Positions 985-29,572 of a stretch of 45,268 bases of DNA are shown here, piece by piece. A program made the position numbers and the translations under genes. This DNA comes from a virus. Below the pieces are notes generated by a model, which was not told the DNA's origin, did no database searches, and worked only from the letters and a program-made list of their open reading frames with translations. The stretch lies in the IMG/VR virus record IMGVR_UViG_3300045988_017036, one strand, 5' to 3'. Position 1 is the stretch's first letter. Each line of letters opens with the position of its first letter.

Positions 985-2061
985 ATGAAGGTAATTAAAA
1001 GAGACGGACGAGAAGTAGAATACGATTGGGATAAAGTAGAGTCAGCTATTGGTAAAGCCTATGCTGCTGTAGGACGCAACATTGAGTTTCCTGATCTGAA
1101 TATGTTGTGTTGTCTTAAAGAGCTTGAAGCAGAACTTAAAGATATTTCTGTGTTCAACGAAAAGATAACCGTAGAAGAAATTCAGGATATGGTTGAAAGA
1201 TTCCTGAGTGGACATGATTGCTTTGAGACAGCTAAGGCTTTTATTCTTTATCGTGAACAACACAGAAAGCAACGTACAGCAGTCCAAGTCAAGGAAGCTA
1301 TAGAAGAATACATTGGCCATGCTGACTGGAGAATTAAGGCAAATAGTAATCAGGGGTATTCCCTTGGTGGTATGATTCTGAATACTGCCGGTAAGATCAC
1401 AGCAAACTATTGGCTCAATGAAGTTTATCCTAAAGAGATCGGAGAGAGACACAGAGATGGTTCCTATCATATTCACGACTTGGATATGCTCTCTGGTTAT
1501 TGCTGTGGACACAGCCTTAGGGCATTGCTTGAGGAAGGTTTTAATGGTATTGTAGGTAAGATTTCAAGCAATCCTCCTAAGCATTTCTCTACGGCCTGTG
1601 GTCAGATTGTGAATTTCCTTGGATGTCTTCAGAATGAATGGGCTGGGGCACAAGCATTCTCTAGCTTTGATACCTATATGGCTCCCTTTGTACGACTTGA
1701 TAACATGAGCCTTGAGGACATCAAGAGAGAACTTGAGTCTATGATCTTCAGTCTCAATGTAGGTAGCCGTTGGGGTTCTCAATGTCCCTTTACGAATCTC
1801 ACGTTTGACTGGGTATGCCCTGATGATTTGAAAGACAAGCACCCGATTATTGGTGGTGAAGAACAAGAGTTCACCTATGGTGACTTCCAAAAGGAAATGG
1901 ACATGATTAACAGAGCCTTTATGGAAGTGATGATTGAAGGTGATAAAGATGGTAGAGCCTTTACGTTCCCTATTCCTACCTATAATATCACAGATGCTTT
2001 TGACTGGGAGCATCCTAATTGTGAGTACCTGTTTAAGATGACAGCCAAGTATGGCAACCCT
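985..2061 (+). CDS. nrdD: anaerobic ribonucleoside-triphosphate reductase (class III RNR) NrdD, exon 1 (ATP-cone plus N-terminal part of the catalytic domain)
   Basis: N-terminal ATP-cone-like region (KVIKRDGREVEYDWDKVESAIGKAY), then NrdD-like sequence ending in KYGNP. This continues in frame as YFANY...SMCCRLRLD at 2829 after a 767-nt insertion. P1 pairing: exon AACCCT with intron GGGGTT (2073..2078). Confidence 0.85.
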
Positions 2062-2828
2062 TGACAACACTAGGGGTTGTAAAATCGTGTGAACTCAGGG
2101 AAACTCCCTCTGGGACAATCCTGAGCCAAGCTTTTCGTAAATAACAAAACAACACAAAACATATTTCTATAAGGATAGATTATGAGACCTATTACAAATA
2201 ACTACACTGAAATCGACACCTACTTTGATAAACCTGAATATTCGATACCTGACCTAACTAAAATGTTCGGTATAAGTACACAGAGTATTCATGGGCATTG
2301 GAGGACAAAGTATGGTAGAGACAAACTGAAAGAAAGAAACCGTATTGTCAAGCATTACAAGAATGCTGGAGAGAATCATCCTAACTACGGTAAACGTGGT
2401 GCTGATGCCCCTAAGTATAAAGGTGTTATCAATGCTGACAAGGGTTACTTTATGATTTATAAACCCTCATGGTACACCGGCAGAAAGAATTGTAAGCACG
2501 TCTATCTGCATCACGTGGTTGTCTGTGAGAGACTGGGTATTTCAAAGATACCTCAAGGATGGTGTGTCCATCATTGTGACAAAGATAAATCCAATAATTC
2601 CTTTGAGAATTTAGTGTTGTTGACTCAAGGGGATCATTCAAGGCTACACGATTATTTACGAAAAGAAGGTGCAACGACTATCTCGAAAGAGAGTACACTC
2701 AAGTGGGTGGAAGCGCACGGTAAAGTTTTCAACAAAGAAGACTTTAATGATATAGTCTGTTCTATTAGGTAACTAATAGCTGTGTAAATTCACGGGGGAG
2801 GATTAACGACCCTCCCTGAACATAAAAG
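2062..2828 (+). mobile_element. group I intron 1 in nrdD (767 nt), carrying an HNH homing endonuclease ORF
   Basis: Interrupts the conserved NrdD motif KYG(N/I)PYF. The 5' exon ends in U and the intron ends in G. IGS pairing is present. The 5' core (GGGAAACTCCCTCTGGGACAATCCTGAGC at 2098) is shared with the other four introns. R element CAACGACTAT (~2673) and S element GATATAGTCTG (2749..2760) plus hairpin CTATTAG/CTAATAG lie inside or at the ORF 3' end. Confidence 0.8.
2182..2772 (+). CDS. intron-encoded HNH homing endonuclease
   Basis: HNH motif ...HHCDKDKSNNSFENLVLLTQGDHSRLH. Own RBS (AAGGATAG). Lies wholly inside the nrdD interruption. Confidence 0.8.
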   Translation: MRPITNNYTEIDTYFDKPEYSIPDLTKMFGISTQSIHGHWRTKYGRDKLKERNRIVKHYKNAGENHPNYGKRGADAPKYKGVINADKGYFMIYKPSWYTGRKNCKHVYLHHVVVCERLGISKIPQGWCVHHCDKDKSNNSFENLVLLTQGDHSRLHDYLRKEGATTISKESTLKWVEAHGKVFNKEDFNDIVCSIR

Positions 2829-3740
2829 TATTTTGCTAACTACTGCAATAGTGAACTGAAGCCTACCGATATTCGTTCTATGTGTTGCAGACTTAGACTT
2901 GACCTTAGAGAATTGCTAAAGAGAGGCAATGGGTTGTTCGGTAGTGCAGAGCAAACCGGTAGTATCGGTGTTGTCACAATCAACATGGCTAGACTAGGGT
3001 ACAAGCATAAAGGTGACAAAGAAGGTCTTTTAGTTGAACTACAGGATTTGATGGAGCTTGCTAAAGACAGTCTTGAGATCAAGCGTAAGTTTATCACTAA
3101 GATGATGGGTGAGGGACTGTATCCGTACACTAAGCGTTACCTTGGTACTTTCAGGAACTTCTTTAGTACGATCGGTGTCAATGGTATGAACGAAATGGTT
3201 CGTAACTTTACGGATGACAAAGAGGACATTACGACTGACTTTGGTGAACAATGGTGTCTTGAAGTCTTGAACTACATCCGTAAAAAGATGATTGAATTCC
3301 AAGAAGAGACTGGAAACCTATACAATCTGGAAGCTACTCCTGCTGAAGGTACAACCTATAGATTTGCTAAAGAAGACTTGAAGAGATACCCTGATATTCT
3401 TCAGGCTGGCACTAAAGAGAATCCTTACTATACGAATAGCTCTCAGTTGCCTGTAGGATTCACGGATGACCCCTTTGAGGCTCTTCTGAGACAAGAAGAG
3501 ATGCAATGTATGTACACCGGTGGCACAGTATTGCACCTGTATATTGGTGAACAGATCAGCTCTTGGGAATCCTGTAGAAACCTTGTAAGAAAGGCAGTTA
3601 CTAACTTTAAGTTGCCTTATATTTCTGTTACACCTACATTCTCCATTTGTCCTAAACATGGATACCTTGCAGGTAAACATGACCATTGTCCTTTATGTGA
3701 TAAAGAAATCATTGAAAAATATAAAGCTAAGGAGTGTTGT
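2829..3740 (+). CDS. nrdD: NrdD exon 2 (catalytic core through the Zn-ribbon; the 3' boundary is approximate and the reading frame runs to a stop codon at 3744..3746)
   Basis: In-frame continuation YFANYCNSELKPTDIRSMCCRLRLD... upstream of the ORF-track start at 2880. C-terminal segment CPKHG..HCPLC is a Zn-ribbon-like region. The glycyl-radical motif is missing from this exon and is found downstream at 4551. Confidence 0.7.
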
Positions 3741-4550
3741 AAATGATAAGTGAAGTAGATATTGAACAAAAGATTCTTAAAGAACACGCTGAAGAAAGAC
3801 AGCCTTGTGAAGTATGGTCTCGTTAACCTACTAGCGTGACCTTTTAAAAACGATGCCTAAACGGGGAAACTCTCACTGAGACAATCCCGTGCTAAACACT
3901 ATATGAGAAACCCTTGGAGGTTGATATATGATGATTGAAATCTGGAAAGACATCCCTGAATGGGAAGGACTCTATCAAGTATCTAATATGGGTAGAGTCA
4001 AGAATACTAAAAGAAACAAAGTCAAAGTCCTTGATATGAACAATGCAGGTTATCTCAGAGTCCAGCTTTGTGATAACACCAGGCGCAAGAAATACTTTAT
4101 CCATCGTCTGGTAGCCCATGCGTTTGTTGATGGTTACTTCGATGGCGCTCAGATAAATCACATTGACATGGATAGGACTAACAACTGTGCTGACAATCTT
4201 GAATGGGTAACTCCTAGTGAAAACCAAAAGAAAGCTGTGGCTATCAAAGGGTTGCACAAAGGACACTTTAAAGACGTACCTTACAAGATCACTTTTAGTA
4301 ATGGAGCTACAATCTACTTCGATAATATGCCCCTTGTCGCTAGGTCTGTTGGTCTGTCCAAGAGTCTTCTCTATTACAGACTCAACGGTAAAGACAAGGT
4401 TTATCTTAAAGAAGTCGATGGGTATCTTTCCAAGTGTAATGCCTAGAGACTATCCGCACAGCGGAGTAAGTAGCATAATGCTATTGAAACGGTATCCATA
4501 GATGATATAGTCCGAACTCATAGGCGACTATGAGATTAACATAATTGGTG
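3741..4550 (+). mobile_element. group I intron 2 in nrdD (about 0.8 kb; the 5' boundary is uncertain), carrying a NUMOD4/HNH_3 endonuclease ORF
   Basis: 5' core element GGGGAAACTCTCACTGAGACAATCCCGTGC (3863) is homologous to intron 1. R-like element AGAGACTATCCG (~4449), S element GATATAGTCCGA (4504..4515) and hairpin CTCATAG/CTATGAG. The downstream frame encodes the NrdD glycyl-radical tail. The junction 3740|4551 satisfies the U / omega-G rules and reproduces the E. coli NrdD spacing of 15 residues between the last Cys and the radical Gly. P1 is only weak (GTGACC at 3836). Confidence 0.55.
3928..4446 (+). CDS. intron-encoded HNH homing endonuclease (NUMOD4 plus HNH_3 type)
   Basis: WKDIPEWEGLYQVSNMGRVKN (NUMOD4-like) and HRLVAHAFV...INHIDMDRTNNCADNLEWVTPSENQKKA (HNH_3). 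Strong RBS GGAGG. Confidence 0.85.
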   Translation: MMIEIWKDIPEWEGLYQVSNMGRVKNTKRNKVKVLDMNNAGYLRVQLCDNTRRKKYFIHRLVAHAFVDGYFDGAQINHIDMDRTNNCADNLEWVTPSENQKKAVAIKGLHKGHFKDVPYKITFSNGATIYFDNMPLVARSVGLSKSLLYYRLNGKDKVYLKEVDGYLSKCNA

Positions 4551-4655
4551 ATGGGTTACCTTAGACCTACCTCCGGCTACAATAAAGGTAAGATAGGAGA
4601 GTTTAATGAACGAAAGTTTTTTAAAGAACCAAAAGCTAAAGATATACAGTGCTGA
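4551..4655 (+). CDS. nrdD: NrdD exon 3 (34-codon micro-exon with the glycyl-radical motif)
   Basis: Translates to MGYLRPTSGYNKGKIGEFNERKFFKEPKAKDIQC*. Compare E. coli NrdD ...RVCGYLGSPDARPFNAGKQEEVKRR. Same absolute frame as exon 2. Overlaps the start of the next gene in another frame. Confidence 0.5.
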   Translation: MGYLRPTSGYNKGKIGEFNERKFFKEPKAKDIQC

Positions 4656-4848
4656 TTGGTGTATGAAGTGTAGGAGCCTCAAGAACACTTTGGATAGACT
4701 TGGAGTATCCTATGAAGTTATAGATGTATCTAAGTTATCAGAAGAAGAATATGCCTCAATTCGTGAGCTTCCTACTATTGAACTCAATAATAATAGACTT
4801 TCTGGTGAAATACATTTGAAAGCCCTAAAAGAATTCTTGGGTTTGTAA
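4606..4848 (+). CDS. glutaredoxin / NrdH-like small redoxin
   Basis: 80 aa with a thioredoxin-fold CxxC (YSADWCMKCRSL). Located next to nrdD. Confidence 0.6.
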   Translation: MNESFLKNQKLKIYSADWCMKCRSLKNTLDRLGVSYEVIDVSKLSEEEYASIRELPTIELNNNRLSGEIHLKALKEFLGL

Positions 4849-4851
4849 AAT

Positions 4852-5130
4852 ATGCTGGTATTAGATGACGAGGATGTCAAGAAGATTGCTGATGGTGTAT
4901 TGCAGTCTTCTCCTCCTGCTGTGGTCTCCTCATGTACTCTTCTTGGCTTCCCGTTATCTGATTGGGTTTATATAGCAACAATCATTTATACATTTGTTGG
5001 AATCCTTAGTATCATAAAGAGATATTGGGTTGACCCCTATCTTAGAGCTAAAAGAAGACTAAGAGAAATAGAAGCAAGGATTAAAAGAGAACATGAGCAA
5101 CAAGAAAAAGAAAACCACACAAGAACTTGA
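4852..5130 (+). CDS. type II holin (T7 gp17.5-like)
   Basis: A single central TM segment (WVYIATIIYTFVGILSII) with a charged C-terminal tail. Resembles T7 gp17.5 and lies immediately upstream of terS, as in T7. Confidence 0.6.
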   Translation: MLVLDDEDVKKIADGVLQSSPPAVVSSCTLLGFPLSDWVYIATIIYTFVGILSIIKRYWVDPYLRAKRRLREIEARIKREHEQQEKENHTRT

Positions 5131-5365
5131 AGAACTCCTAGGGTTAATCCAAGAGAAACTTTATGATGCTATGAGTAACGACTTGGATGATCCTCAAAAG
5201 CGTTCTCCACAGCTCTACAACGCTATTATTAAGGAGCTAGAACGTAATGGCATAGATTGTGTCCTTAAAGCAGGAGACGATGAAGGAAATGCTTTTAATA
5301 GCCTTCTGTTGAAGGTACAGAATACCTATAGTGAAGCAGGATATGACAATCAAGCAATCAACTAA
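5093..5365 (+). CDS. terminase small subunit (T7 gp18-like)
   Basis: 90 aa. The motif RSPQLYNAI is shared with T7 gp18. It overlaps both the holin and the large terminase gene, as in T7. Confidence 0.7.
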   Translation: MSNKKKKTTQELEELLGLIQEKLYDAMSNDLDDPQKRSPQLYNAIIKELERNGIDCVLKAGDDEGNAFNSLLLKVQNTYSEAGYDNQAIN

Positions 5366-6869
5366 TGAACTCCTTCTAGAGTATTATAATAACTTCCCAC
5401 TATTCTGTAACCTTGTATGGAAGCAAATTGGGCTACCTCAGTTGACACCTATACAAGATCAAATTGCTAAGACACTACAGAATCCTCCTAGTGACAGATA
5501 CATCATTGAAGGATTCCGTGGTGTGGCTAAGAGTTTCCTTACGTGTGCCTACTGTGTGTGGAGCTTATGGAGAGACCCACAGATTAAGGTAATGATTGTG
5601 TCAGCTAACAAAGAAAGAGCTGATGCTAATGCTATCTTCGTTAAGAAGATCATAGATGTACTGCCTTTCTTGTCTCACCTGAAGGCTAGAGAAGGACAGA
5701 GAGATACACAGAATCTCTTTGATGTTGGTCCTGCATTGCCTGACCATAGCCCTAGTGTCAAGTCTGTAGGTATCAAAGGGCAGCTTACCGGTAGTCGTGC
5801 TGATCTTCTGATCTCAGATGACGTTGAAGTTGTTCAGAATAGCTTCACTCAGGTACTCAGAGATCAACTATTCGAATATGTCAAGGAATATGATGCTGTG
5901 ATTAAGCCTAATGGTAAGATCATATATCTTGGTACTCCTCAAAATGAAATGTCTTTGTACAATGAGCTACAAGAAAGAGGCTACACCTGCATCATATTCC
6001 CTGCTAGATACCCCTATGATGACAAGTCTAGGAATAACTATGGGGATAAACTAGCTCCCTATATCGCTAAGAGATATGATAGTGATCCTAAGAAATACGC
6101 AGGGAGACCTACAGACCCCCTAAGATTCGATGAAGAAGACCTACAGAGACGTGAACTGTCTTATGGAAGAGCTGGTTTTGCTCTTCAGTTCATGCTCGAT
6201 ACAACACTCTCAGATGCCGATAGATACCCGCTCAGGCTTCAAGATTTCCTTGTGGGTATGTTTGATAGGGTAGAGGCTCCAATGAAGCTTACGTGGCTTC
6301 CTGAGGCCAGCAAAAGGCTGTCTAGCGATACTCCTACGATGGGACTTAAGGGTGACTACTTCTATTACTACAATACAGCCTCAGAAGAGATCAAAAAGTA
6401 TGACTATAAGATGATGGCAATCGATCCTTCGGGTAAGGGCAAAGATGAGTCTGCGTACTGTGTTTTGTATTATCTTAATGGTTATATTTATTTGATGGAA
6501 ACTGGAGGATTCTTAGGAGGTTATTCAGAGCCTGTCCTAAATAAACTAGCAAATATAGCTAAAAAGTATAATGTGAATGAGGTAGTCCTAGAAGGAAACT
6601 TCGGTTCAGGAATGTACACTAGACTTTTTGAACCAGTATTAAAAAAAGTATACCCTAACTGTGGCATCACAGAAGTAACTTCTAAAGGACAAAAAGAATT
6701 ACGCATCATAGATACTATAGAACCTATCTTAGGAAATCATAAACTATGTGTTACTCCCGAGTGCATACAAAAAGATTTTAATAGTGTACCGGAAGGAGAC
6801 TTTAAGTATTCATGCTTCTATCAGTTGACTAGAATCACACACGATAAGGGAGCATTGATACATGACGAT
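5331..6869 (+). CDS. terminase large subunit (T7 gp19-like), exon 1
   Basis: Strong similarity to T7 gp19 across the ATPase and nuclease domains (GFRGVAKSF..., SVKSVGIKGQLTGSRADLLISDDVEV, GALIHDD). The frame then breaks at HDD|. Confidence 0.9.
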
Positions 6870-7631
6870 AGAAGAATTTGTCGTCAATAAAACCCTTAAA
6901 TTCGGTGGAACTCTCTTTAGGAATCTAATGAGACAATACCGAGCCGAGCTTAATTGCAGGTGTAACGACTATCCGTAATGGAGTAGGTAGCAAGTGCTAT
7001 CGAAAAATGGGTGAAAAAGATATAGTCTGAACTTCATGGTGACATGAAGCATCTACATTTTACAATAGGAGAATTTCTATTATGAACAAAAATCAAAATT
7101 ATTACGAAGGTTATAATAATGTTGGTCTTCATCTGAAGGCTAATAGACTAAAAGGTAAAACTTGGCTGGTTACTTTTACAGATACAGGTAGCACACGCAA
7201 AGCAAATATAGACAACATTAAAAAAGGTAAAGTTAAAGACTTATATTATCCTTCAAGATATGGTATAGGCTATGACGGAGAATTTATCAGAGTACCTTAT
7301 TGGAGAAAAGCTAAAGATTTGTGGTCTAACATGCTAAAAAGATGTTACTTTGAAAATGATTCCAAAGGTTATTTTGGAAGATGTACAGTAGCTCCTAGAT
7401 GGCATTGCTTTGCTAACTTTTTAGAGGATATGAAAACCCTTCCTAATTTTGATAAATGGTTGAAAAACACTACCCCATACGAATTAGACAAGGACTCTAT
7501 TGTCCCTAATAATTCTGTTTACTCAAAAGACACCTGTATGTTTCTTGATAGACACACAAATAGGGCTAATGGTAAGGGTGGTAAGAAACTAGTAGATGGT
7601 TGCTGGGTAACGACCGGCAATTAACATATTG
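6870..7631 (+). mobile_element. group I intron in the large terminase gene (762 nt) with a 180-aa ORF placed 3' of the catalytic core
   Basis: Exon ...CATGACGAT ends in U. P1 is a perfect 6-bp pairing with GTCGTC (6880..6885). The core carries GGTGGAACTCTC...TGAGACAATACCGAGC, R element AACGACTATCCG (~6973) and S element GATATAGTCTGA (7019..7030) plus hairpin CTTCATG/CATGAAG. Omega G is at 7631. The spliced product reads HDD|RLDSLAIGCAYL, matching T7 HDDRLDALALGIEYL. Confidence 0.8.
7082..7624 (+). CDS. intron-encoded protein of unrecognised family (candidate homing endonuclease)
   Basis: 180-aa ORF with an RBS (AGGAGAA), located entirely inside the terminase intron, downstream of the S element. 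I see no HNH, GIY-YIG or LAGLIDADG motif. Confidence 0.55.
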   Translation: MNKNQNYYEGYNNVGLHLKANRLKGKTWLVTFTDTGSTRKANIDNIKKGKVKDLYYPSRYGIGYDGEFIRVPYWRKAKDLWSNMLKRCYFENDSKGYFGRCTVAPRWHCFANFLEDMKTLPNFDKWLKNTTPYELDKDSIVPNNSVYSKDTCMFLDRHTNRANGKGGKKLVDGCWVTTGN

Positions 7632-7841
7632 AGATTAGATAGTCTTGCTATAGGATGTGCATATCTAAAGGACTTTATGGGGATTGATGCTGATGAAGGT
7701 ATATCTGAGACTAGTGCCCAATGGTATGAAGACTCTATGGATGGCCTATTGAAGCATCTTACAACTAAAACCTATGGTAAATACCTTGTTGATACATACG
7801 ATGATGGTATGGACAATGTAGCTAATATCTCTATCTTTTGA
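7632..7841 (+). CDS. terminase large subunit, exon 2 (C-terminal 69 aa)
   Basis: RLDSLAIGCAYLKDFMGID...DGMDNVANISIF aligns with the T7 gp19 C-terminus. The spliced protein would be about 582 aa, against 586 aa for T7 gp19. Confidence 0.85.
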   Translation, partial: RLDSLAIGCAYLKDFMGIDADEGISETSAQWYEDSMDGLLKHLTTKTYGKYLVDTYDDGMDNVANISIF

Positions 7842-17365: not shown

Positions 17366-18196
17366 TTGGTTAACCATACGATTAATGACACCACGACTAT
17401 TCAGGGTCAGTCTATCGCTACGGTGATTGCAGATACGGTTTATAAAGGTTCTCGTATCACGACTCTTGAATTGGTCTATCCTCGATACATTCATAGTGAG
17501 TTTATGACTCACCGAATGTTTAGCCGTAATGCTTCTTCTAGCCGTGCTATTCCTATCGAAAAGATAGTGAATGAGGTACTTACTGACCCTGTAGGTTTCG
17601 ACTATGTAGGATTCAATCAGTCTGGCATGGTGGCTGCTGAAGAACTCCCTGAAGATTTGAAAGAAGATTTTCTTGCTGAGTGGAAACTTTGGGGTATGCA
17701 GACGGCTCTTAAAGTCAAACTGTGGGCTAAGAAGTACAACATCCATAAGCAAACCTTGAATCGAGCTTTGGAACCTTGGAGTCGAATTAAGGTACTTGTA
17801 ACTGCAACTGAGTGGGACAATTTCTTTAAGCTTCGACTGGCACCGGATGCACAACCTGAGATTCAGAATTTAGCTAAGGCTATGAAGTCAGCTATGAATG
17901 CTTCTACACCGGTAGAGTCTAAGATGCACTTGCCCTATGTTGATCTGACAGATCGTGAGCCTGAGTATACTGACATGTATCACTCTGTAGCTCGTTGTGC
18001 CCGTGTGTCGTACAACAATAACGGGGGTACTACGAGTACGCTTGAAGAAGACAAGAAGCTGTTTGAACGTCTTCAAAATAATGGGCATTGGTCTCCCTTT
18101 GAGCATACTGCTGAGTTCGTAGGTGACAATGATATGCACGCTAATTTCTACAACTGGCGGTCTCTTCGAAAGGTCTATGAACTAGCCGGAGTATAA
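17366..18196 (+). CDS. thyX: flavin-dependent thymidylate synthase ThyX
   Basis: ThyX signature motif RHRxxSxNxxSxR is present (THRMFSRNASSSRAIP). TTG start with RBS GGAG. Confidence 0.85.
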   Translation: MVNHTINDTTTIQGQSIATVIADTVYKGSRITTLELVYPRYIHSEFMTHRMFSRNASSSRAIPIEKIVNEVLTDPVGFDYVGFNQSGMVAAEELPEDLKEDFLAEWKLWGMQTALKVKLWAKKYNIHKQTLNRALEPWSRIKVLVTATEWDNFFKLRLAPDAQPEIQNLAKAMKSAMNASTPVESKMHLPYVDLTDREPEYTDMYHSVARCARVSYNNNGGTTSTLEEDKKLFERLQNNGHWSPFEHTAEFVGDNDMHANFYNWRSLRKVYELAGV

Positions 18197-18485: not shown

Positions 18486-18602
18486 AGAGTGTCCTAGTTA
18501 GTCCTGCTGAGTGTGTACAAACAAAGTAGGATAAAGAAGACTATATCGAAGGTCTGGACGGATATAGCGCACGAAGTTCTTCTGGGTTTTTCATTCGTGC
18601 AT

Positions 18603-20567: not shown

Positions 20568-22346
20568 ATGCTGAACGACAGTGAAAAACTGATTGATTAC
20601 ACAACAAAGAAATACTTAATCACAGACATTGAGACGAATGGTTTGTTAGATACTGTCTCAAAGTTCTGGTGTGCTTGGTGCTATGACTATGAGCGTAAGT
20701 CATACATTGGATTCAAAGACATTGATCTTTATGTTGCCTATCTGGAAGATGCTGTAGATAAAGGTTATCGTCTGGTCTATCACAATGGAATTAAATATGA
20801 CATACCTGCATTAAAGAAGATCATGGGTAGAGACTTGAAGTTCAACCCAAGGGAATGTGTCGTTGATACTCTTGTCTTAGCTAGGCTCATCTACACACAG
20901 ATTAAGGACATTGATATTGGCTTGATTAAGTCCGGCAGACTCCCTAAGAAACTCTATGGCTCTCACTCATTGAAAGCTTGGGGTTATCGTCTGGGAATCT
21001 TGAAGGGAACTTACGGTGAACAAGAAGAAGCTTGGAATCAATTCTCAGAAGAGATGTACGAATACTGTAAGCAGGACGTTGCAGTTACTCTAGAACTCTT
21101 CTCTTTGTTGTTTAAGAAGCAATATCCTGTATCCTCCATTGAGCTTGAGCATAGCATTGCTTGGGTGATGGCTAAACAGGAACGCAACGGGTTTGTCTTT
21201 GACTATGATAAAGCGGTTACTCTTTATGCTACTCTTAGTGCTAAACGTAGTGAGATTGAAGATAAACTTGTGAAGACTTTTGGCTCATGGGAGAAATACA
21301 TTGGAGACAAAATCTACAAAAGAGACAACGCTAAACGAGGGATTGTTGCTGGCGTACCTTACCCACAGTATGAAACGGTGGTTTTCAACCCTAGCAGCCG
21401 TGAGCATATTGCTAAAGTCCTTATGGAAAGGGGGTGGACTCCGACAGTATTCACAGAAACAGGAAAACCTAAAGTAGACGAAGAGACTCTACAGTCTGCT
21501 ATGGATATACCGGAAACAAAGCTAATCCTTGAATACTTGTTGATACAGAAGCGTATCTCTCAGTTAGCTGAGGGTGATTTTGCTTGGCTGAAGATGGAGA
21601 AGAAAGATGGTGATGGTATCCATAGAATTCACGGTAGCGTTAATCCTAACGGGACTGTTACTGGTCGTGCATCTCATAGCTTCCCTAATGTTGCACAAGT
21701 TCCTGCGGGACATTCAGAATATGGAAAGGAATGCAGGGAGCTTTTTAGAGTACCTGAAGGATGGTACGAATGTGGCATTGACGCTTGTGGACTTGAGTTG
21801 CGTTGCCTTGCTCATTTCCTTTATCCATATGATAAGGGTGAGTACGGTGATATTATCTTAAATGGTGACATCCATACGCATAACCAACAGCTTGCTGGGT
21901 TACCTACTCGTGACATGGCGAAGACATTTTGTTATGGACTTTTGTACGGAGCTGGCAATGAGAAGATCGGTTCAATCATTGGTGGTAGTGCTGCTGAAGG
22001 TAAAGCTTTGAAAGACAAGTTTATGAAGGGACTACCGGCATACAAGAAGTTAACTAAAGCTATCCACAATGCCTTGGTAGAAGATGAGAGGTTTATAGGT
22101 GGTAAAAACATTGTTAAATGGCGTAAGAGATTCCATCGTGATAATCCTAGTCTTGATATTACTCATAGTCTCATTGGTCTTGATGGTCGCATTCTTTATT
22201 GTCGCTCTCCCCATAGCGCTCTTAATCTACTGCTTCAGTCCGCAGGTGCGCTCGTCTGTAAGCAGTGGGTGGTCTTCTGGGAAGAAGGAATGAGAGCTAG
22301 AGGTTTCGATCATCACAACGACTTTAGGTTGCAAGCTTGGGTGCAT
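20568..22346 (+). CDS. DNA polymerase (T7 gp5 family), exon 1
   Basis: Exonuclease and polymerase motifs collinear with T7 gp5 (ITDIETNGL, KQERNGF, RIHGSVNPNGTVTGRASHSFPNVAQ, LELRCLAHF, KTFCYGLLYGAG, SPHSALNLLLQSAGAL). The frame breaks after ...QAWVH. Confidence 0.9.
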
Positions 22347-22973
22347 AACCTTTCACATTGTGCACGTTAAACTAGGTTAATTCGGTGAAGCCCCACGAGG
22401 GTAATACCGAGCTAAACATGGAGGAAACTATGCGTGGTAAACCGTTAATCTTTACTACCACTAAAGACGGTTGCATAGTTTCTACCTCACACAGACTCAA
22501 TCAAGATGGGTATCTCAGAGTGAGAGACCCTAGTTATAGAGGCTCTGGTCGTGCTCCACTTGTCATGTATCATCGTTACGTTTGGGAATACTTGAAAGGT
22601 TCTATTCCTGAATGTAAGGAGATACATCATAAGTGTCACAATCGAGCCTGCTGTAACATAGATCATCTGGAATTGATTGATATTGTCGAACATAAGTGTG
22701 AACATAATCACACTAGGTATAAGAATAGAAAAGATGAAGCTTATGCCTATTGGTTAGACAATAAAGATATTTCCGGTACTGATCTAGGTGAGCTGTTCGG
22801 AGTCTCTTTTTCTACTGGTTGTAGGTGGATAAGAGAATGGAAGTGTAGAGACTAGGAATATTCCGTAGGGGCTATGGGTGAAACTCCCATAGTCTCGAAA
22901 TGCCTAGCACAGCTAATACCAATAGGCTGTGAAGATATAGTCCGACACCCGTAGTAATATGGGAAACAGTAGG
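22347..22973 (+). mobile_element. group I intron in the DNA polymerase gene (627 nt), carrying an HNH endonuclease
   Basis: The exon ends TGGGTGCAT, with a perfect 6-bp P1 to GTGCAC (22361..22366). R-like element AGAGACTAGG (~22845). S element GATATAGTCCGA (22934..22945) plus hairpin CCCGTA/TATGGG. Omega G at 22973. The spliced product reads ...AWVH|DEIQVACRTKEIA, matching T7 AWVHDEIQVGCRTEEIA. Confidence 0.8.
22418..22855 (+). CDS. intron-encoded HNH homing endonuclease
   Basis: HHKCHNRACCNIDHLEL HNH motif. ATG at 22418, within track ORF 22385..22855. Confidence 0.8.
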   Translation: MEETMRGKPLIFTTTKDGCIVSTSHRLNQDGYLRVRDPSYRGSGRAPLVMYHRYVWEYLKGSIPECKEIHHKCHNRACCNIDHLELIDIVEHKCEHNHTRYKNRKDEAYAYWLDNKDISGTDLGELFGVSFSTGCRWIREWKCRD

Positions 22974-23129
22974 GATGAAATTCAGGTTGCTTGTCGCACT
23001 AAAGAGATTGCTGATGCTTGTGTAGAGATTGCACAGGAAGCTATGAGAAAGACTCAGGAACACTTTAAGTTTAACTGTCAGTTGGATACCGAAGGAAAGA
23101 TCGGGCATAACTGGATGGAATGTCACTAA
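22974..23129 (+). CDS. DNA polymerase exon 2 (C-terminal 51 aa)
   Basis: DEIQVACRTKEIADACVEIAQEAMRKTQEHFKFNCQLDTEGKIGHNWMECH aligns with the C-terminus of T7 gp5. Not in the ORF track, presumably because the stand-alone ORF falls below the size cut-off. Confidence 0.85.
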   Translation, partial: DEIQVACRTKEIADACVEIAQEAMRKTQEHFKFNCQLDTEGKIGHNWMECH

Positions 23130-24450: not shown

Positions 24451-24469
24451 AAAAGGAGGACTTTAGGTT

Positions 24470-24721: not shown

Positions 24722-24735
24722 AGGAACCTATAGAT

Positions 24736-24972: not shown

Positions 24973-24983
24973 GGAATACCTTA

Positions 24984-25505
24984 ATGCCCCATAGTGAAGA
25001 AAAGAATTCAGTATTGATTGGTCTTGTAGAAACCAATGAAGAAGTAAACTATATTGTGGACAATGGCCGTAAGTATTTTGAAGATACTAGTGCATTGTCT
25101 ATCTTTAAGATGACTGACTTTGAGTATATCAAAGAGTTCTTTAAGTCAATCATTAAGAAGGATGCAAATACTCCTTATTTTCTTTGTAAGTTTACTGATT
25201 CTAAGACCAATGAAATTGTAGGTTTTGTATTGTTCTCTATTGGTAGTCCTTGGTATAATCCTAAGCTGACTGCTATTAGTGAAGAGCTTACTGTTTCACT
25301 TAAGAAAGGCTATGGTATAGCTAGAAGTGTCGCTGCTTATATGGCCTATTTTGTAAAGGAAGGAAAAGCAGATATTGCTTCTGGTGCTAGTGCGCAGACT
25401 AATTGTGCCCCTGAAGTAGCGAATAGTTATGCTAAACTTGGCTATGATCGTTATCCTACGTACTACCTTGTGAGTGACACAATAAAAACCTTTGGTAAAG
25501 AATAA
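24984..25505 (+). CDS. hypothetical protein, possibly a GNAT-like acetyltransferase
   Basis: KKGYGIARSVAAYMAYF resembles the GNAT acetyl-CoA-binding motif A. Weak. Confidence 0.35.
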   Translation: MPHSEEKNSVLIGLVETNEEVNYIVDNGRKYFEDTSALSIFKMTDFEYIKEFFKSIIKKDANTPYFLCKFTDSKTNEIVGFVLFSIGSPWYNPKLTAISEELTVSLKKGYGIARSVAAYMAYFVKEGKADIASGASAQTNCAPEVANSYAKLGYDRYPTYYLVSDTIKTFGKE

Positions 25506-25520
25506 CAAAAAATAATAAAC

Positions 25521-27098
25521 ATGGAAAAACAAACTGATGTAGCTTATGGTAGAGCTAAAGCAGTTTATGACAAGTTAACCCAAGACCGAGAGGATTACAC
25601 ACGGAGAGCCGAAGAGTGTGCAAAGTACACCATTCCTCGTCTATTCCCTAGAGAATATGACGATAGTGGTACTGATTATGCAACACCTTACAACTCAGTG
25701 GGTGCAAGAGGGGTAAACAATCTGGCATCTAAATTGTTGCTTGCATTGTTGCCTCCCAATCAGCCTTTCTTTAGGTTTGGTCTAGATGAAGAATCAATGG
25801 CGATGCTTCAGGAGTCCAATAACGAGCAAATGAAGGATGCCATTGAACTTGGTTTGTCTATGCTTGAAAACTCTGTAGTCAAGTATATGGAAGCTAATTC
25901 TCTTAGACCGACTTTAAGTGAGGCCATAAAACAGCTCATTGTAGCTGGTAATGCCTTATTGTTCCTTCCTCCAAAAGAAGGCGGTGTCAAATGTTACAAA
26001 CTCAGAAACTATGTTGTTCAGAGGGATGGGACTGGTAATGTCCTTCAAATTGTAGCTAAAGATACTATGAGTAGAGCTTCGTTGCCGGACTATGTTTCTA
26101 AGTTCCTGACCGATCACAGACCTGTCTCCAACGAAGACTCTAAGCCTTCTGATGAAAAAGTAGATATTTATACGCATACCTACTTGGATGGCAATAGATG
26201 GGTGTCTTACCAAGAGATAGATGGCTTTAAGGTACCAAAGAGTGAACAAACGTATCCTAAAGACAAGCTTCCGTGGATGCCTATAAGATTCTCTAAGATT
26301 GACGGAGAGAACTATGGTCGCTCCTTTGTGGAAGACTTTCTAGGAGACTTGAGAAGCCTTGAAGTTCTTTCTCAGTCGATTGTTGATTTGTCGAAGATTG
26401 CTGCTAAAGTAGTCTATCTGGTTAGTCCTTCTTGTCAGACGAATATACAGGCTTTAGCTAAAGCTAGAAATGGTGCTTATGTCAAGGGACGTGTGGATGA
26501 TGTTGTCCCTGTACAGTTAAACAAATCTGCTGACATGCAGGTTACTATGAGTACCGCTTCTAACATTGAACAAAGATTGTCTTTCTGTTTCCTTCTGAAT
26601 AGTGCAGTACAAACAGGTGCCCAAGGAAGAGACAGAGTGACTGCTGAAGAAATCCGATATGTTGCAGGTGAACTTGAAGACACTTTGGGTGGTACCTATT
26701 CTCTGTTGTCTAATGAGCTGCAAATGCCTTTGGTAAAGTGCATCTTCAATCAGATGCAATCCAACGGTCAACTGCCTGACTTCGGAGAGTTTGATTCTAA
26801 GATTGAACCTACGATTGTTACCGGTGTTGATGCTCTTGGACGTGGACATGATCTTGCTAACTTGACTCAGGCTATGACAATTCTATCACAGTTCCCTGAT
26901 GTTATGCAAAGTGTCAACCAAAGTAATCTTGCATTGCGAGTCTTTACGAGTGCACATATTGATCCTACAGGATTGATTAAGACACCTGAACAGATTGAAC
27001 AAGAAAGACAAGCTCAGATGCAAATGTATCAACAACAGGTTGCTACGGATACAGCAGGACAAGTTGTAGCAGATCAAGCTAGAGCACAAGCACAATAA
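25521..27098 (+). CDS. portal (head-tail connector) protein (T7 gp8-like)
   Basis: Collinear with T7 gp8: QDREDYTRRAEECAKYTIP, VGARGVNNLASKLLLAL, GDLRSLE and VTAEEIRYVAGELEDTLGG. Confidence 0.95.
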   Translation: MEKQTDVAYGRAKAVYDKLTQDREDYTRRAEECAKYTIPRLFPREYDDSGTDYATPYNSVGARGVNNLASKLLLALLPPNQPFFRFGLDEESMAMLQESNNEQMKDAIELGLSMLENSVVKYMEANSLRPTLSEAIKQLIVAGNALLFLPPKEGGVKCYKLRNYVVQRDGTGNVLQIVAKDTMSRASLPDYVSKFLTDHRPVSNEDSKPSDEKVDIYTHTYLDGNRWVSYQEIDGFKVPKSEQTYPKDKLPWMPIRFSKIDGENYGRSFVEDFLGDLRSLEVLSQSIVDLSKIAAKVVYLVSPSCQTNIQALAKARNGAYVKGRVDDVVPVQLNKSADMQVTMSTASNIEQRLSFCFLLNSAVQTGAQGRDRVTAEEIRYVAGELEDTLGGTYSLLSNELQMPLVKCIFNQMQSNGQLPDFGEFDSKIEPTIVTGVDALGRGHDLANLTQAMTILSQFPDVMQSVNQSNLALRVFTSAHIDPTGLIKTPEQIEQERQAQMQMYQQQVATDTAGQVVADQARAQAQ

Positions 27099-27117
27099 TA
27101 CAAAGGATGAATACTAA

Positions 27118-27897
27118 ATGAGTGGTGAAGCCCCTAACGATACCGGTGCAGTTGTAGATACCGGTAACATTGACGTACAAGTTGGAGCTGAGACTGGTAC
27201 CGTTCAGTTTGATACCAATGCAGGTAACGGACAGTCTATTATGGCTCCTGAAGGTGAACCTGATGCTCCGAACTATGATTCTGGTAGTAATGACAGTGGT
27301 GACAACAACAATCCTCCTTCTGGAGATACTACCCTAGCGGATGATGTAGCAAAGCATCAGGATACCCTTAAGGCTCTTGAAAAAGATCTCCGTAATAAAG
27401 GAGTGGACTTTAAGCAGGCCATTAAGGAATACGAAGAATCTGGTAATATTTCCAGTCGTACTTTGGCTAACCTTGTAAATGCAGGTTATCCGAAGGAAGT
27501 CATCGAGTCTTTCATTGAAGGAAGACACGCAATTGAAGAACGTTTCACTAAGGCTGTTTATGATACTGCCGGTGGTGAACAAGAATACTTTAAGATGACT
27601 CAATGGGCGGCCAATAACCTTCCTCAGAGTACCCTTAAAGCGTTCAACAAAGCTCTCGATAGTAATGACTTGGATTTGATCTCAATGATGGTTGCAGGGA
27701 TTCAATCCAAGATGAACGCTACGAGAGGTACATCTAATCCTACTCTTCTGGGCAGTACCCAAGGTGTAGGTGGAGGAGAACCTAAAGGGTTTGCATCAAA
27801 GCAGGACATGATTAAAGCTATGTCTGACCCTAGATATGCGAGAGACCCTGCATATACCCGTTCTGTTGAACAAAAGATGCTCTATACTGTATTTTAA
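27118..27897 (+). CDS. scaffolding protein (T7 gp9-like)
   Basis: Acidic, low-complexity N-terminus with a helical C-terminus, between the portal and capsid genes. Confidence 0.75.
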   Translation: MSGEAPNDTGAVVDTGNIDVQVGAETGTVQFDTNAGNGQSIMAPEGEPDAPNYDSGSNDSGDNNNPPSGDTTLADDVAKHQDTLKALEKDLRNKGVDFKQAIKEYEESGNISSRTLANLVNAGYPKEVIESFIEGRHAIEERFTKAVYDTAGGEQEYFKMTQWAANNLPQSTLKAFNKALDSNDLDLISMMVAGIQSKMNATRGTSNPTLLGSTQGVGGGEPKGFASKQDMIKAMSDPRYARDPAYTRSVEQKMLYTVF

Positions 27898-27956
27898 AAA
27901 ATAAATAAACCGATAATAATATAATAAAAATAATAACATAATAAGAGGTTATTTAA

Positions 27957-28121
27957 ATGGCAGCTCTTAATGATAATTCTATTTCCAATCCTGGTCAACA
28001 ACTGAGTACTGGTGATCGCCGTGCGTTGTTCCTGAAGATTTTTGCAGGTGAAGTTCTGACGGCTTTTGCTCGTACCACGGTTATGATGGACAAGCATATT
28101 GTCCGAACCATTAACTACGGT
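27957..28121 (+). CDS. major capsid protein (T7 gp10-like), exon 1 (55 aa)
   Basis: MAALNDN...RRALFLKIFAGEVLTAFARTTVMMDKHIVRTINYG matches T7 gp10A residues ~20-75 (KLALFLKVFGGEVLTAFARTSV...HMVRSISSG). Confidence 0.85.
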
Positions 28122-28762
28122 AATTGATTTGCTGTAGTAAAACTCTTTTAATTGCTGGGAACTCCTATAGATAGGACAATCAGCAGCTAAGACTAACCGA
28201 AAGGTAGTAAAGTTCAACGACTAGTTTTTATAACGTAGGTATCAAGTGATACCGAAATGGAGAGATATATTATTATGAGCGAAAGCACCGAGATGGGCTT
28301 TAAGGAGTGCAAACTCTGCAAACAGGTTAAACCTTTGTCAGAGTTCTACTATAGAAAAGATAGCAAAGACTATCGTGCTGAGTGCAAGCAATGCAGGAAA
28401 AACTATGAACGTCTTAAAAAGACTGGATGGTCTCCTGAAGCTTATGAGTATGCTTGGTATCATCAGAATGGTAAGTGTGCTATATGTGGTTGTGAGTTAG
28501 GCTCTAGTAGATATACTAAACCTGCCGCAGATCACGATCATAAGACGGGTAAACTTAGAGGTATTCTCTGTACTCAATGCAATACAGCTTTAGGTCTTAT
28601 GAAAGATTCTCCTTATAGGCTTGAGTCCGCGATTCGTTATTTAGAAGAACACGGAAATAATATATAAGATATAGTCTGATCTCATAGGTAACTATGAGCC
28701 GTCTAGGGTGGGAACCTAGATGGAGCTACGGGGTAACGCCTGTAGTGAAACATGAGGCAACG
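28122..28762 (+). mobile_element. group I intron in the major capsid gene (641 nt), carrying an EndoVII-type HNH endonuclease
   Basis: The exon ends ACTACGGT, with P1 to GCTGTA (28131..28136). Core carries GGGAACTCC...GGACAATCAGCAGC, classic R element GTTCAACGACTAG (~28214) and S element GATATAGTCTGA (28668..28679) plus hairpin CTCATAG/CTATGAG. Omega G at 28762. The spliced product reads TINYG|KSASFPVMGRT, matching T7 SISSGKSAQFPVLGRT. Confidence 0.85.
28257..28667 (+). CDS. intron-encoded HNH endonuclease (His-Me finger with Zn-binding Cys pairs)
   Basis: CKLC...CKQC...CAIC...DHDHKTGKLRGILCTQCNTALG. The start is probably ATG at 28275 after GGAGAG. Confidence 0.85.
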   Translation: MERYIIMSESTEMGFKECKLCKQVKPLSEFYYRKDSKDYRAECKQCRKNYERLKKTGWSPEAYEYAWYHQNGKCAICGCELGSSRYTKPAADHDHKTGKLRGILCTQCNTALGLMKDSPYRLESAIRYLEEHGNNI

Positions 28763-29572
28763 AAATCCGCCTCGTTCCCTGTTATGGGTCGTACTCATGC
28801 TAAGTACCTTGAACCCGGCAATAGCTTGGACGATCAACGTAAGAAGATGGAACACACCGAGAAGGTCATCGAGATCGATGGTCTTCTTACGGCTGACTGC
28901 TTGATTACTGATATTGACGAAGCAATGAACCACTATGATGTGCGTTCTGAATACTCTCGTCAACTTGGTGAAGCTCTTGCTCAGGCTGCTGACTGTGCTG
29001 TTATCAATGAACTTGCTAATCTGGCAGCTAAGAAGACTGCTGGTATGCAAGAAAATATTCCTGCAAACTCTACTCTTAAAAACCCCGGTACGGGTAAGGC
29101 TTTTGAATTTGTTACCGGTATGGACGAAGCTCAATCCGCAGCTTATGGCAATAAGTTGCTTGAAGGTCTGATTGCTGCTCGTGCTGCATTTACCCGTAAC
29201 TATGTGCCTCAGGCTGATCGTTACTTCTTGACGACTCCTGAAGGTTACTCTGCTATTCTCCGTGCGTTGATGCCTGATGCGGCTAACTATGCGGCTCTCT
29301 TTGACCCGTCTAGCGGTCGCTTGATGAATGTTGCTGGCTTCCAAATTATCGAAGTTCCGCACTTCATTAACGATGGTGTTGACAGCAAGCACACCCTCAA
29401 GGCACAACTTACGACTGCTGTGTTGCAAGGTATTGTCTTCCATCGTTCCGCTGTGGGTACTGTGAAGCTCCGTGATCTTGCTATGGAACAAGCACGTAGA
29501 GCTGAATATCAGGCAGATCAAATCATTGCCAAGTACGCGATAAACAAAACCTGTCGCGTTAATCTTTTCTAA
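28763..29572 (+). CDS. major capsid protein, exon 2
   Basis: KSASFPVMGRTHAKYLEPGNSLDDQRK...HRSAVGTVKLRDLAMEQARRAEYQADQIIAKYA is collinear with T7 gp10A. The spliced protein would be about 324 aa. Confidence 0.9.
   Translation, partial: KSASFPVMGRTHAKYLEPGNSLDDQRKKMEHTEKVIEIDGLLTADCLITDIDEAMNHYDVRSEYSRQLGEALAQAADCAVINELANLAAKKTAGMQENIPANSTLKNPGTGKAFEFVTGMDEAQSAAYGNKLLEGLIAARAAFTRNYVPQADRYFLTTPEGYSAILRALMPDAANYAALFDPSSGRLMNVAGFQIIEVPHFINDGVDSKHTLKAQLTTAVLQGIVFHRSAVGTVKLRDLAMEQARRAEYQADQIIAKYAINKTCRVNLF

Follow-up and report, generated by a model that had tools for sequence, protein, structure and literature searches.

Six probable group I introns with endonuclease genes in the 45-kb genome of a T7-like human gut phage, two of them lacking helix P8

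The window analysed here, which is the whole stretch of 45,268 nucleotides (nt) of the IMG/VR record IMGVR_UViG_3300045988_017036, represents the genome of a T7-like phage of human gut metagenomic origin, in which the class III ribonucleotide reductase gene nrdD, the terminase gene terL, the DNA polymerase gene and the major capsid gene are interrupted by six insertions with the features of group I introns, designated I1 to I6 in their order along the window. The open reading frames (ORFs) of the window form a map of T7-type genes on a single strand, with RNA polymerase (10415–13069), single-stranded DNA-binding protein, endonuclease I (13851–14306), lysozyme, primase-helicase, DNA polymerase, exonuclease, portal, scaffold, capsid, tail and core proteins, terS and terL. 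Further genes are nrdD, a glutaredoxin gene (4606–4848), thyX (17366–18196) and transfer RNA (tRNA) genes; despite nrdD, glutaredoxin and thyX, a radical-SAM activase (nrdG) was not recognised among the window ORFs scanned. An intron ORF identical to one in the window occurs on a human gut metagenome contig (ERR414245, PRJEB5224), the closest records in GenBank, with 74–79% DNA identity, are 'Bacteriophage sp.' contigs from human faeces that carry no annotation, and among isolates Delftia and Ralstonia phages come nearest, with about 60% identity of the capsid protein. Searches of IMG/VR with the conceptually spliced products of the capsid, polymerase and terL genes brought together hundreds of related contigs, and loci or contigs of relatives are referred to by L-numbers. 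The interrupted genes and their insertions are listed below together with the evidence for each assignment (a slash in a peptide, exon sequence or coordinate pair marks a junction, and between two RNA strands a pairing; aa, amino acids).

985–2061, + strand: exon 1 of the large nrdD ORF, ending in …KYGNP (ORF list; contiguous with 2829 onwards in L088/L089/L180)
2062–2828, + strand: I1, 767 nt, subgroup IA2, with its ORF in P6a and running through P7–P9 (absent in L088/L089)
2182–2772, + strand: putative homing-endonuclease ORF of I1, 196 aa, HNH_3 (Pfam PF13392, 8.9e-10; PHROG 7545, 3e-34)
2829–3746, + strand: exon 2 of the large nrdD ORF, YFANY…KAKECCK and stop (alignment, intron-less relatives)
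3743–3823, + strand: exon 1 of the small nrdD ORF, a 62-aa glycyl-radical subunit (ATG/stop overlap; ribosome-binding site (RBS) AAGGAG 7 nt upstream)
3824–4547, + strand: I2, 724 nt, sunY-like IA2, with its ORF in P6a and without P8 (absent in L088/L089)
3928–4446, + strand: putative homing-endonuclease ORF of I2, 172 aa, NUMOD4 and HNH_3 (Pfam, PHROG)
4548–4655, + strand: exon 2 of the small nrdD ORF, VMGYLRPTSGYNKGK… (alignment, intron-less relatives)
5331–6869, + strand: exon 1 of terL, ending in …ALIHDD (ORF list, T7 gp19 alignment)
6870–7631, + strand: I3, 762 nt, sunY-like IA2, with a contiguous core at 6870–7050, its ORF 3' of P9 and without P8 (absent in L088/L089)
7082–7624, + strand: ORF of I3, 180 aa, probable HNH-type endonuclease (PHROG 2081 'HNH endonuclease', 3e-37)
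7632–7841, + strand: exon 2 of terL, RLDSLAIG… (T7 gp19 alignment)
20568–22346, + strand: exon 1 of the DNA polymerase gene, ending in …QAWVH (ORF list, T7 alignment)
22347–22973, + strand: I4, 627 nt, IA2, ortholog of the T7-group polymerase intron (absent in L081)
22430–22855, + strand: putative homing-endonuclease ORF of I4, HNH_3 and helix-turn-helix (Pfam, PHROG)
22974–23129, + strand: exon 2 of the DNA polymerase gene, DEIQVACRT…MECH and stop (T7 alignment)
27957–28121, + strand: exon 1 of the major capsid gene, ending in …RTINYG (ORF list, gp10A alignment)
28122–28762, + strand: I5, 641 nt, IA2, with its ORF in P8 and with P9.1 and P9.2 (absent in L001–L003; Rfam model RF00028)
28257–28667, + strand: ORF of I5, 136 aa, putative homing endonuclease of the Endonuclease VII-motif (DHHRN) type (Pfam PF02945, 2.8e-21)
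28763–29541, + strand: exon 2 of the major capsid gene, KSASFPV…AKYA and AT (gp10A alignment)
29542–30433, + strand: I6, 892 nt, compact group I, without P2 or P7.1/P7.2 (absent in L001–L003)
29642–30403, + strand: ORF of I6, 253 aa, putative double-motif LAGLIDADG homing endonuclease (Pfam PF00961, 1.3e-10; PF14528)
30434–30506, + strand: exon 3 of the major capsid gene, G followed by GHGGLRPEAVGVFVKTAQTGSDD and the stop, the last 24 codons (T7 gp10A alignment across the junction)

The boundaries of the insertions are independent of any RNA model, since they are fixed by intron-less alleles. In blastn comparisons the three closest relatives (83–97% DNA identity) proved to be uninterrupted at 2061/2829, 3823/4548, 6869/7632, 22346/22974, 28121/28763 and 29541/30434, and one relative, contig 3300045988_017162, is without all six insertions. 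The absence is exact for I1, I2 and I3 in L088/L089 and for I5 and I6 in L001–L003. Alleles with and without the intron are found among the relatives at all six sites, and I1 and I3 recur in independent assemblies at 90–94% identity. Upon conceptual splicing the products are free of gaps across every junction when aligned with T7 DNA polymerase (MAWVHDEIQVGC across the I4 junction), with T7 gp10A (RSISSGKSAQFPV and AKYAMGHGGLRPEA across the two capsid junctions), with T7 gp19 (AHDDRIDAIALG across the I3 junction) and with NrdD, for which the proteins of T. maritima and T4 were used. At all six sites the insertion is precise and polymorphic, has group I architecture and an endonuclease gene, and its removal restores a conserved protein. 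Together the insertions amount to 4413 nt, which is 9.7% of the 45 kb, or one insertion per 7.5 kb.

An initial annotation made from the letters alone had described five introns in this genome and had located breaks at the peptides KYGNP/YF, HDD/RLD, AWVH/DEIQV and TINYG/KSASFPV, which do flank the breaks in the ORF map and translations. Of its boundary pairs, 2061/2829, 6869/7632, 22346/22974 and 28121/28763 were exact, and the second nrdD intron had to be moved from 3741–4550 to 3824–4547 on the basis of the blastn comparison, its 5' end having been misplaced because a genuine split of the nrdD ORF was taken for it. The actual number of introns is six, as 29542–30433 in the 3' end of the capsid gene had been missed; the former end point, 29572, is a stop codon which was encountered because the capsid frame had been read on into I6.

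All six introns carry a U at position −1, paired with a G of a guide sequence situated 10–20 nt into the intron, and a 3'-terminal G (omega-G) at ends which the intron-less alleles had set independently. The P1 helix between exon and guide comprises 6–8 pairs closing with U.G in all introns, namely CAACCCU/GGGGUUG in I1, GGUCUCGU/GCGUGACC in I2, GACGAU/GUCGUC in I3, GUGCAU/GUGCAC in I4, CUACGGU/GCUGUAG in I5 and ACGCGAU/GUCGCGU in I6. A P1-like pairing of at least six contiguous pairs ending in U.G is available at 6.6% of the U positions genome-wide versus five of the six junctions. Downstream of P1 the helices P3, P4, P5, P6, P7 and P9 follow in canonical order in the six introns, with a P3 which differs in sequence from intron to intron and is always complementary. 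A common block GGAAACUC…GACAAU(A/C)C makes up P4–P5, J6/7 is (A/G)AC or AGA, P7 is GACUA/UAGUC, which is the pairing that had been proposed between two shared elements, and J8/7 is (A)AGAUA, followed by the P9 hairpin. The shared motifs reported at the outset, GGAAACTC…GACAAT(A/C)C, (A/G)ACGACTA / AGAGACTA and GATATAGTC(C/T)GA, are confined on the + strand to these insertions in a motif scan, and outside them the same scan for more introns in the window met a single chance match, at 18547 on the minus strand. P1, P3, P6a, P7.1, P7.2, P8 and P9 vary in sequence among the introns with their complementarity kept.

Subgroup IA2, the phage type of sunY, td and PhiI, is distinguished by two hairpins, P7.1 and P7.2, which are linked by G-U-A and lie between P7 and P3', and by the lack of P2, as in the introns of PhiI, W31 and Pf-WMP3 (PMC3428280). 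I1 to I4 have both P7.1 and P7.2, joined by AGUA or CGUA, and no P2, I5 has the GUA plus P7.2 only, and I6 has neither P7.1 nor P7.2. I1 to I5 are members of the phage IA2 class, and I6 is not. The ORFs are placed in P6a in I1, I2 and I4 (in I1 the ORF loop is closed by a perfect 14-bp P6a), in P8 in I5, 3' of P9 in I3, and from the P6 loop through P7, P3' and P8 in I6. A P10 of 4–5 pairs can be drawn for I3 to I5 and one of 3 pairs for I6.

Detection with the Rfam group I model RF00028, which had been recommended as a check, was successful in part. At the curated threshold (gathering score of 50 bits) only I5 was found (28075–28698, 62.5 bits), relaxed searching added partial matches in I1 (36.1 and 21.8 bits), I4 (36.2 bits) and I2 (24.4 bits), and there was no match in I3, even relaxed, and none in the I6 region searched alone at E≤10. 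The low scores, which made the check look half negative and on which alone four of the introns would have been dismissed, probably result from ORFs which split the cores in P6 or P8 and from the loss of P8 in two introns. A separate covariance model, R1, was made from five outside introns: the T4 sunY intron, an Edwardsiella phage terL intron and three introns of gut relatives. On the window it gave nine matches at E≤3e-4 (1e-37 to 3e-4), all within I1 to I5 and none elsewhere. I3 was matched over its full length with 143.5 bits (E 1e-37) and with the P8 positions deleted, and the other four were matched as 5' and 3' halves flanking the ORF (I1 66.7/43, I2 34.5/33.5, I4 36.9/34.8 and I5 63.1/20.5 bits). 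With filters off the 5' half of I6 reached 20.8 bits. Minimum free energy (MFE) folding of the contiguous I3 core recovered P1, P3, P4, P5, P5a, P7.2 and P9, with z = −4.4.

Homologs of I6 occur at the identical capsid site in nine relatives and are 77–82% identical to it. In an alignment of their ORF-less parts 99.6% of the cells are paired versus 34–44% for slid partners, and in four pairs both partners have changed; P8 takes the forms CUC/GAG, CAC/GUG and CCC/GGG, and P9 also varies. In some of these homologs P4–P5 reads GGGAAACUCUUUAUAGACAACCCG, the block common to I1 to I5. The GenBank phage collection contained no match to I6. An I6-like intron with a LAGLIDADG ORF was observed in the small nrdD ORF of L179/L181 (1724–2540) at VMG/YLRP, three codons downstream of the I2 site; its last exon base is apparently C and not U. 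The gut contigs with this intron also carry I1 and I3. The glycyl-radical loop of nrdD is an intron hot spot with two different occupants.

Every intron ORF is preceded by a Shine-Dalgarno sequence, in agreement with the free-standing ORFs with their own RBS that had been noted before. The earlier typing of these ORFs as four HNH and one of unknown kind holds for I1, I2 and I4, all with HNH_3; the I5 ORF belongs to the Endonuclease_7/DHHRN type, and the I3 ORF is without Pfam or NCBIfam match and is connected to HNH endonucleases by its PHROG hit. Pseudomonas phage KIL1 contains a DNA homolog of the I3 ORF, with the annotation HNH endonuclease. The NCBIfam scan of the six intron ORFs was uninformative. 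For the I4 ORF a GTG start at 22385 is listed, and the likely start is the ATG at 22430, after GGAGG. The two motifs of the I6 ORF are LAGFIDADG and LAGYIDGDG. Endonucleases with the EndoVII motif (DHHRN), the family of the I5 ORF, are in some cases encoded by introns in T7-like polymerase genes (PMC6083498); the T7-type endonuclease I of the phage is a gene apart from it. A search for close homologs of the I2 endonuclease, made with I2 orthologs and covariation in view, returned only proteins of at most 51% identity in unrelated contexts.

The best explanation is that the six insertions would be group I introns which are spliced out, with a probability of about 0.9. The proposal of related group I introns carrying endonuclease genes in essential genes of a T7-like phage is supported by their precise absence in relatives, the T7-collinear proteins, the U.G and omega-G rules, the covariance-model matches and the covariation. 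Each intron would be transcribed within the mRNA of its host gene and would fold into a group I core, in which P1 consists of the last 6–8 exon nucleotides and the internal guide with U.G at the cleavage site, and P3 to P9 include P7 as the guanosine-binding helix. Two guanosine-initiated transesterifications would then excise the intron, rejoin the exons and restore the frame. In a mixed infection the endonuclease would cut the intron-less allele of a related phage, and repair would copy the intron in (homing), from which a competitive benefit of the introns might arise (compare PMC11620839).

Several points weigh against this explanation. In a helix table covering all introns 330 of 332 positions are paired versus 34–40% with the 3' strands slid, and as the table was drawn by eye this control is biased in its favour. 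P1 of I2 carries one U-U mismatch, and P10 is weak in I1 and I2 (2–3 pairs). The RF00028 gathering threshold is missed by the introns other than I5, and I6 is wholly unmatched. Without P8, I2 and I3 may splice poorly or need a helper. GTP-dependent self-splicing in phage mRNAs, homing and the activity of the endonucleases are deduced from sequence, and the genome is a metagenome assembly, so that the viability of this exact genome is unproven, yet I1 and I3 are met again in independent assemblies.

A break of another kind is found in nrdD. The large frame of 664 aa stops at 3743–3746 (…KAKECCK and stop), where it overlaps (ATGA) with an ATG that has AAGGAG 7 nt upstream. The 664-aa body terminates downstream of the zinc-finger cysteines CPLC, and the 62-aa ORF contributes the fourth cysteine and the glycyl-radical loop; its frame reads …QPCEVWSR/VMGYLRPTSGYNKGK… and is the one interrupted by I2. 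The segment 3741–3823 is thus coding, being the start of the 62-aa ORF, and not intron. The overlap and the RBS are identical in two intron-less relatives, L088/L089 (4120–4320), and stand-alone small homologs of 54–74 aa (PF13597) are present on unrelated contigs of 45–83 kb (L174–L176), with another ORF between both parts. On the 83-kb contig L174 the small ORF comes after an intein-containing nrdD and an 84-aa ORF; the large nrdD ORF of this unrelated contig (43–3600, 1185 aa) has an intein which bears a LAGLIDADG domain. As judged from these reading frames, two ORFs together encode the class III ribonucleotide reductase, an arrangement kept in relatives. A sequencing or assembly error at 3743 was considered; two independent relatives have exactly the same ATGA overlap and RBS, and small ORFs standing alone are met repeatedly, which makes such an error unlikely. 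A programmed +1 frameshift at 3743 may be an alternative. No description of a two-ORF NrdD was found in the literature searched. In the initial annotation a genuine split of the homologous proteins into separate polypeptides had been named as an argument against introns; such a split is real in nrdD at one point (3743) and is unrelated to the introns. Directly upstream of nrdD, L088/L089 have an additional 1.18 kb of unknown genes as compared to the window.

The helix P8 is normally counted within the conserved P3–P8 domain of group I introns. It is present in I1, I4, I5 and I6 and absent in I2 and I3, which have therefore been classed as P8-less variants and not as canonical members. The segment from P3' to P7' measures 11 nt in I2 (CAUAGAUGAUA) and 10 nt in I3 (GAAAAAGAUA), and the same position holds a hairpin of 15 nt in T4 sunY and of 12–13 nt in the introns of L180 and Edwardsiella phages. 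The possibility that the P7.2 hairpin of I2 and I3 is a displaced P8 was ruled out, since there is no P3' partner between P7 and the hairpin and homology to T4 sunY puts P3' after it. A literature search for a P8-less group I intron returned nothing relevant, which is not proof of novelty, and an exact-pattern scan of IMG/VR for the P7.1–P7.2 motif of I2 and I3 gave nothing. The P8-less terL intron is found in at least four assemblies (window/L177, L179, L181 and L125). Its ortholog in L125 lies at the same site, is 70% identical to I3, scores 64.4 bits with RF00028 with all 59 P8 positions deleted, and differs from I3 by compensatory changes in P3, P5a, P7.1, P7.2 and P9, from which continued selection on the fold after the loss of P8 would follow. 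It is quite probable that I2 and I3 self-splice autonomously. A wider proposition is more doubtful than not, namely that I2, I3 and the L125 ortholog are naturally self-splicing without P8, the IA2-specific P7.1/P7.2 perhaps substituting for it, and that in addition the introns of this clade colonise new genes and sites by guide-directed reverse splicing, not by endonuclease homing, the six endonucleases serving as a weapon against co-infecting intron-less relatives.

Other explanations of the six insertions are in poor agreement with the observations. That the genes are truly fractured by free-standing endonuclease genes, with the pieces being made separately and assembling without RNA splicing, gains some credit from the one real split present here, the nrdD ORFs of 664 and 62 aa with their ATGA overlap and own RBS, kept in relatives and recurrent elsewhere, and from split phage genes beside endonuclease genes, which are known, for example from PMC2677866. 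It is nevertheless very improbable, as the downstream pieces (DEIQV…, RLDSL…, KSASF…, GHGGL…) are without start codon or RBS at the junction and begin in the middle of a codon or motif, the breaks cut the polymerase motif VHDE, capsid fragments of 55 aa and 24 aa are unlikely to fold alone, and every insertion has a ribozyme core detected by covariance models. Even less credible, to the point of being negligible, are inteins, group II introns or assembly chimeras. An intein does interrupt nrdD in the unrelated contig L174, but in the window in-frame stops directly after the 5' junctions and out-of-frame ORFs characterise all insertions and there is no Hint or intein Pfam domain; group II introns gave no Rfam match at E≤1 in the window, and the intron ORFs are nucleases; chimeras are at odds with the occurrence of the same insertions in independent assemblies and samples.

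More serious, if still rather unlikely, is the view that introns have decayed at some of the sites, I2 and I3 with their missing P8 being the foremost candidates, in which case the genome would be defective or splicing would depend on a protein or on another intron in trans. It is the shortness of the P3'–P7' segment in I2 and I3 (10–11 nt versus hairpins of 12–15 nt in T4 sunY, L180 and Edwardsiella) and the failure of RF00028 to detect I3 which speak for decay. The gene terL is essential, however, with the P8-less intron recurring there among the assemblies named above, and the L125 ortholog, diverged by 30%, keeps five helices by compensatory changes, both of which speak against decay.

For the distribution of the introns across the clade R1 was run over 160 related loci, and 80 loci were used for comparison of the capsid gene. 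IA2 introns were detected at three terL sites and in other upstream genes, and none in the capsid gene of the 80 relatives. I5 is found only in the window (in none of the 80 relatives), and I6 in nine of the 80. Ten of the 80 capsid loci (L006, L009, L012, L017, L018, L021, L036, L071, L074 and L075; approximately 900–1660) show a two-part IA2 match 1.4–2 kb upstream of the capsid gene, apparently in the portal gene as judged by position; the portal gene of the window is uninterrupted (25521–27098). In the closest relative (L083, contig …_042751) a 681-nt IA2 intron with an EndoVII-motif ORF was seen at 3847–4529, at a second polymerase site …MAKTF/…YGLLYG; an intron of this type (near 21930 of the window) is absent from the window. 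The second terL site (near 6605 of the window) is occupied by one intron in several forms, which include an ORF-less one of 185 nt (L134, 6262–6445), ones with P8 remnants of 95–140 nt (L135, 6262–6540; L133, 6262–6585) and, among the forms listed, one with a full ORF (L132/L136/L137, 6269–6954). These forms are a natural series of decay or gain of an endonuclease gene.

Closely related introns are found at unrelated sites which have only the exon strand of P1 in common. The exon junction of I1 in nrdD, …GGCAACCCU/UAUUUU, compares with …UUCCAACCCU/AACCUA in the polymerase gene of Pectobacterium phage PPWS1, and that of I3 in terL, …CAUGACGAU/AGA, with the Walker-B junction …CAGACGAU/ in terL of L180 and Edwardsiella phages. 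Intron-less alleles contain synonymous variants which are unable to pair with the guide (GGUAAUCCG and GAUGAC), and the Walker-B sequence of the window itself is likewise GAUGAC. That ectopic relatives share this strand of 6–7 nt would mean that new sites are gained or kept only where P1 can form, which suggests that the choice or the retention of sites may be governed by P1. Reverse splicing may be the route; alternatively, introns inserted illegitimately may have been kept by selection for splicing, perhaps together with co-conversion of the neighbouring exon sequence.

Some further observations concern the tRNA region. A tRNA-like element at 17223–17344 consists of an acceptor stem of 7 bp, a T arm and an anticodon arm (UAU), encodes its CCA end, and contains a 46-nt insertion in place of the variable loop. 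It scores 37.6 bits with the Rfam tRNA model and 21.7 bits with the transfer-messenger RNA (tmRNA) model and is not called by ARAGORN; in its MFE fold the acceptor and T arms are preserved and two additional hairpins form (z = −2.5). A tRNA-Arg(UCU) at 15797–15889 has an extra arm of 18 nt; such a class II-like arm is unusual in an arginine tRNA. In the capsid motif GGLRPEA the AGA codon is aligned with an R of T7 gp10A, so that this codon is apparently read normally. A seventh intron, in thyX, was considered in view of a Pfam match that sets in at profile position 60 and of the tRNA-like element upstream, and was ruled out because the ORF 17366–18196 has its own RBS and the N-terminal ThyX motifs.

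The genome illustrates the load of selfish introns which a small lytic genome may carry, with one tenth of it intron DNA, in genes which a podovirus can least lose, and two of the introns in the capsid gene. Its clade offers a natural series for gain, loss and ORF decay of introns, with hundreds of gut contigs which contain different intron combinations at no fewer than three sites in terL, two in the polymerase gene and three in nrdD, at two in the capsid gene and, apparently and by position, in the portal gene. It also bears on interference competition between co-circulating phages by means of intron endonucleases, for which PhiPA3 is an experimental case (PMC11620839). The P8-less introns of the sunY type are ready-made candidates for minimal ribozymes, and the P1 exon strands shared by unrelated sites make the reverse-splicing route of intron transposition, a matter of long debate, directly testable in phage. 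The intron load of metagenomic phage genomes is probably under-counted, because gene callers break the genes into pieces and five of the six introns stay below the Rfam thresholds.

Comparison with known phage introns shows most of these elements to have close counterparts. I4 is the already known polymerase intron of the T7 group, of subgroup IA2, which is present in phages PhiI, W31 and 13a and encodes the endonuclease I-TslI (Bonocora and Shub 2004, as cited in PMC3428280). It is an ortholog at the same codon boundary, (M)AWVH/DEIQV, with the same guide GUGCAC; like the intron of phage 13a, in which gene 5 is annotated as a joined coding sequence, it has no P2, an ORF in P6a, P7.1/P7.2 and an HNH ORF starting with MRGK…, and over the whole intron it is 66–72% identical to those of phage 13a, Yersinia phage WX1 and others. 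In contrast to the phages with this intron, it is one of six here and not the sole one, and the capsid protein is only about 60% related to that of any isolate. I1 has its whole architecture and its HNH ORF in common with the polymerase intron of phage PPWS1, of Escherichia phage ECO104 and of Acinetobacter Friunavirus-type phages; I1 and the PPWS1/ECO104 intron agree in the guide (GGGGUUG) and in the heptamer of the 5' exon (CAACCCU), whereas the host genes differ (nrdD, YGNP/YF, versus polymerase, SSNP/NLQ, in PPWS1) and the exons are unrelated beyond the heptamer. A stretch of 52–54 nt of I1 (2666–2720 of the window; P6'/P7–P7.1–P7.2–P3', within the HNH ORF) is 100% identical in records of Acinetobacter, Pectobacterium, Klebsiella and N4-like coliphages, where the genes containing it bear the annotation HNH (homing) endonuclease, and is far more conserved than the rest of the introns, which suggests either a strong dual constraint on RNA and protein or a recent exchange.

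I1 and I2 share their host gene with the T4 nrdD (sunY) intron, which encodes I-TevII. The sites are distinct, that of T4 sunY being after …QAYE (approximately residue 181), that of I1 after KYGNP (residue 359) and that of I2 in the glycyl-radical loop (SR/VMGYLRP). The cores of I2 and I3 are near-identical to T4 sunY in P4–P6 (GGGAAACUCUCACUGAGACAAUCC) and in P9 (CUxCAUGGUGACAUGxAG), and the ORF of I3 is located 3' of P9 as in T4 sunY; the differences are an endonuclease of HNH and not of GIY-YIG type, and the sunY P8, CAACUC-UAA-GAGUUG, of which I2 and I3 have no equivalent. The terL introns of Edwardsiella phages (vB_EtA_WCT72P1 and others) and of the gut relative L180 are 68–74% identical to the I3 core and agree with I3 in the guide GUCGUC, in the exon hexamer GACGAU and in having the ORF 3' of P9. 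In WCT72P1 and L180 the insertion site is the Walker-B DD/, which precedes the HDD/ of I3 by about 350 codons, and P8 is retained there. DNA similar to these introns is also matched in the Klebsiella T7-like phages RCIP0053 and vB_Kp_Z1.

The capsid and terminase genes, which had been regarded as unusual targets, have precedents in the terL introns of the Edwardsiella T7-like phages and in the capsid and tail introns of Cluster J mycobacteriophages (PMC3706429). Multi-intron phages are likewise known, such as T4 with three introns, Staphylococcus phage Twort, Cluster J and the Bastillevirinae, for which 45 introns in 37 genes were described across the subfamily (PMC11878797), and in these, too, group I introns with homing endonucleases reside in conserved genes of replication, nucleotide metabolism, packaging and structure. 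Such genomes are 110–170 kb long or siphoviral, whereas here six introns are contained in 45 kb, two of them within a T7-type capsid gene of 1 kb. The judgement of the initial annotation that the case is exceptional can therefore be retained for the density and not for the kind of element. The elements belong to a well-known class; their density, the new sites in the capsid gene and in nrdD, the variants without P8 and the ectopic sites that match the guide make this phage and its clade a good study system rather than a new principle.

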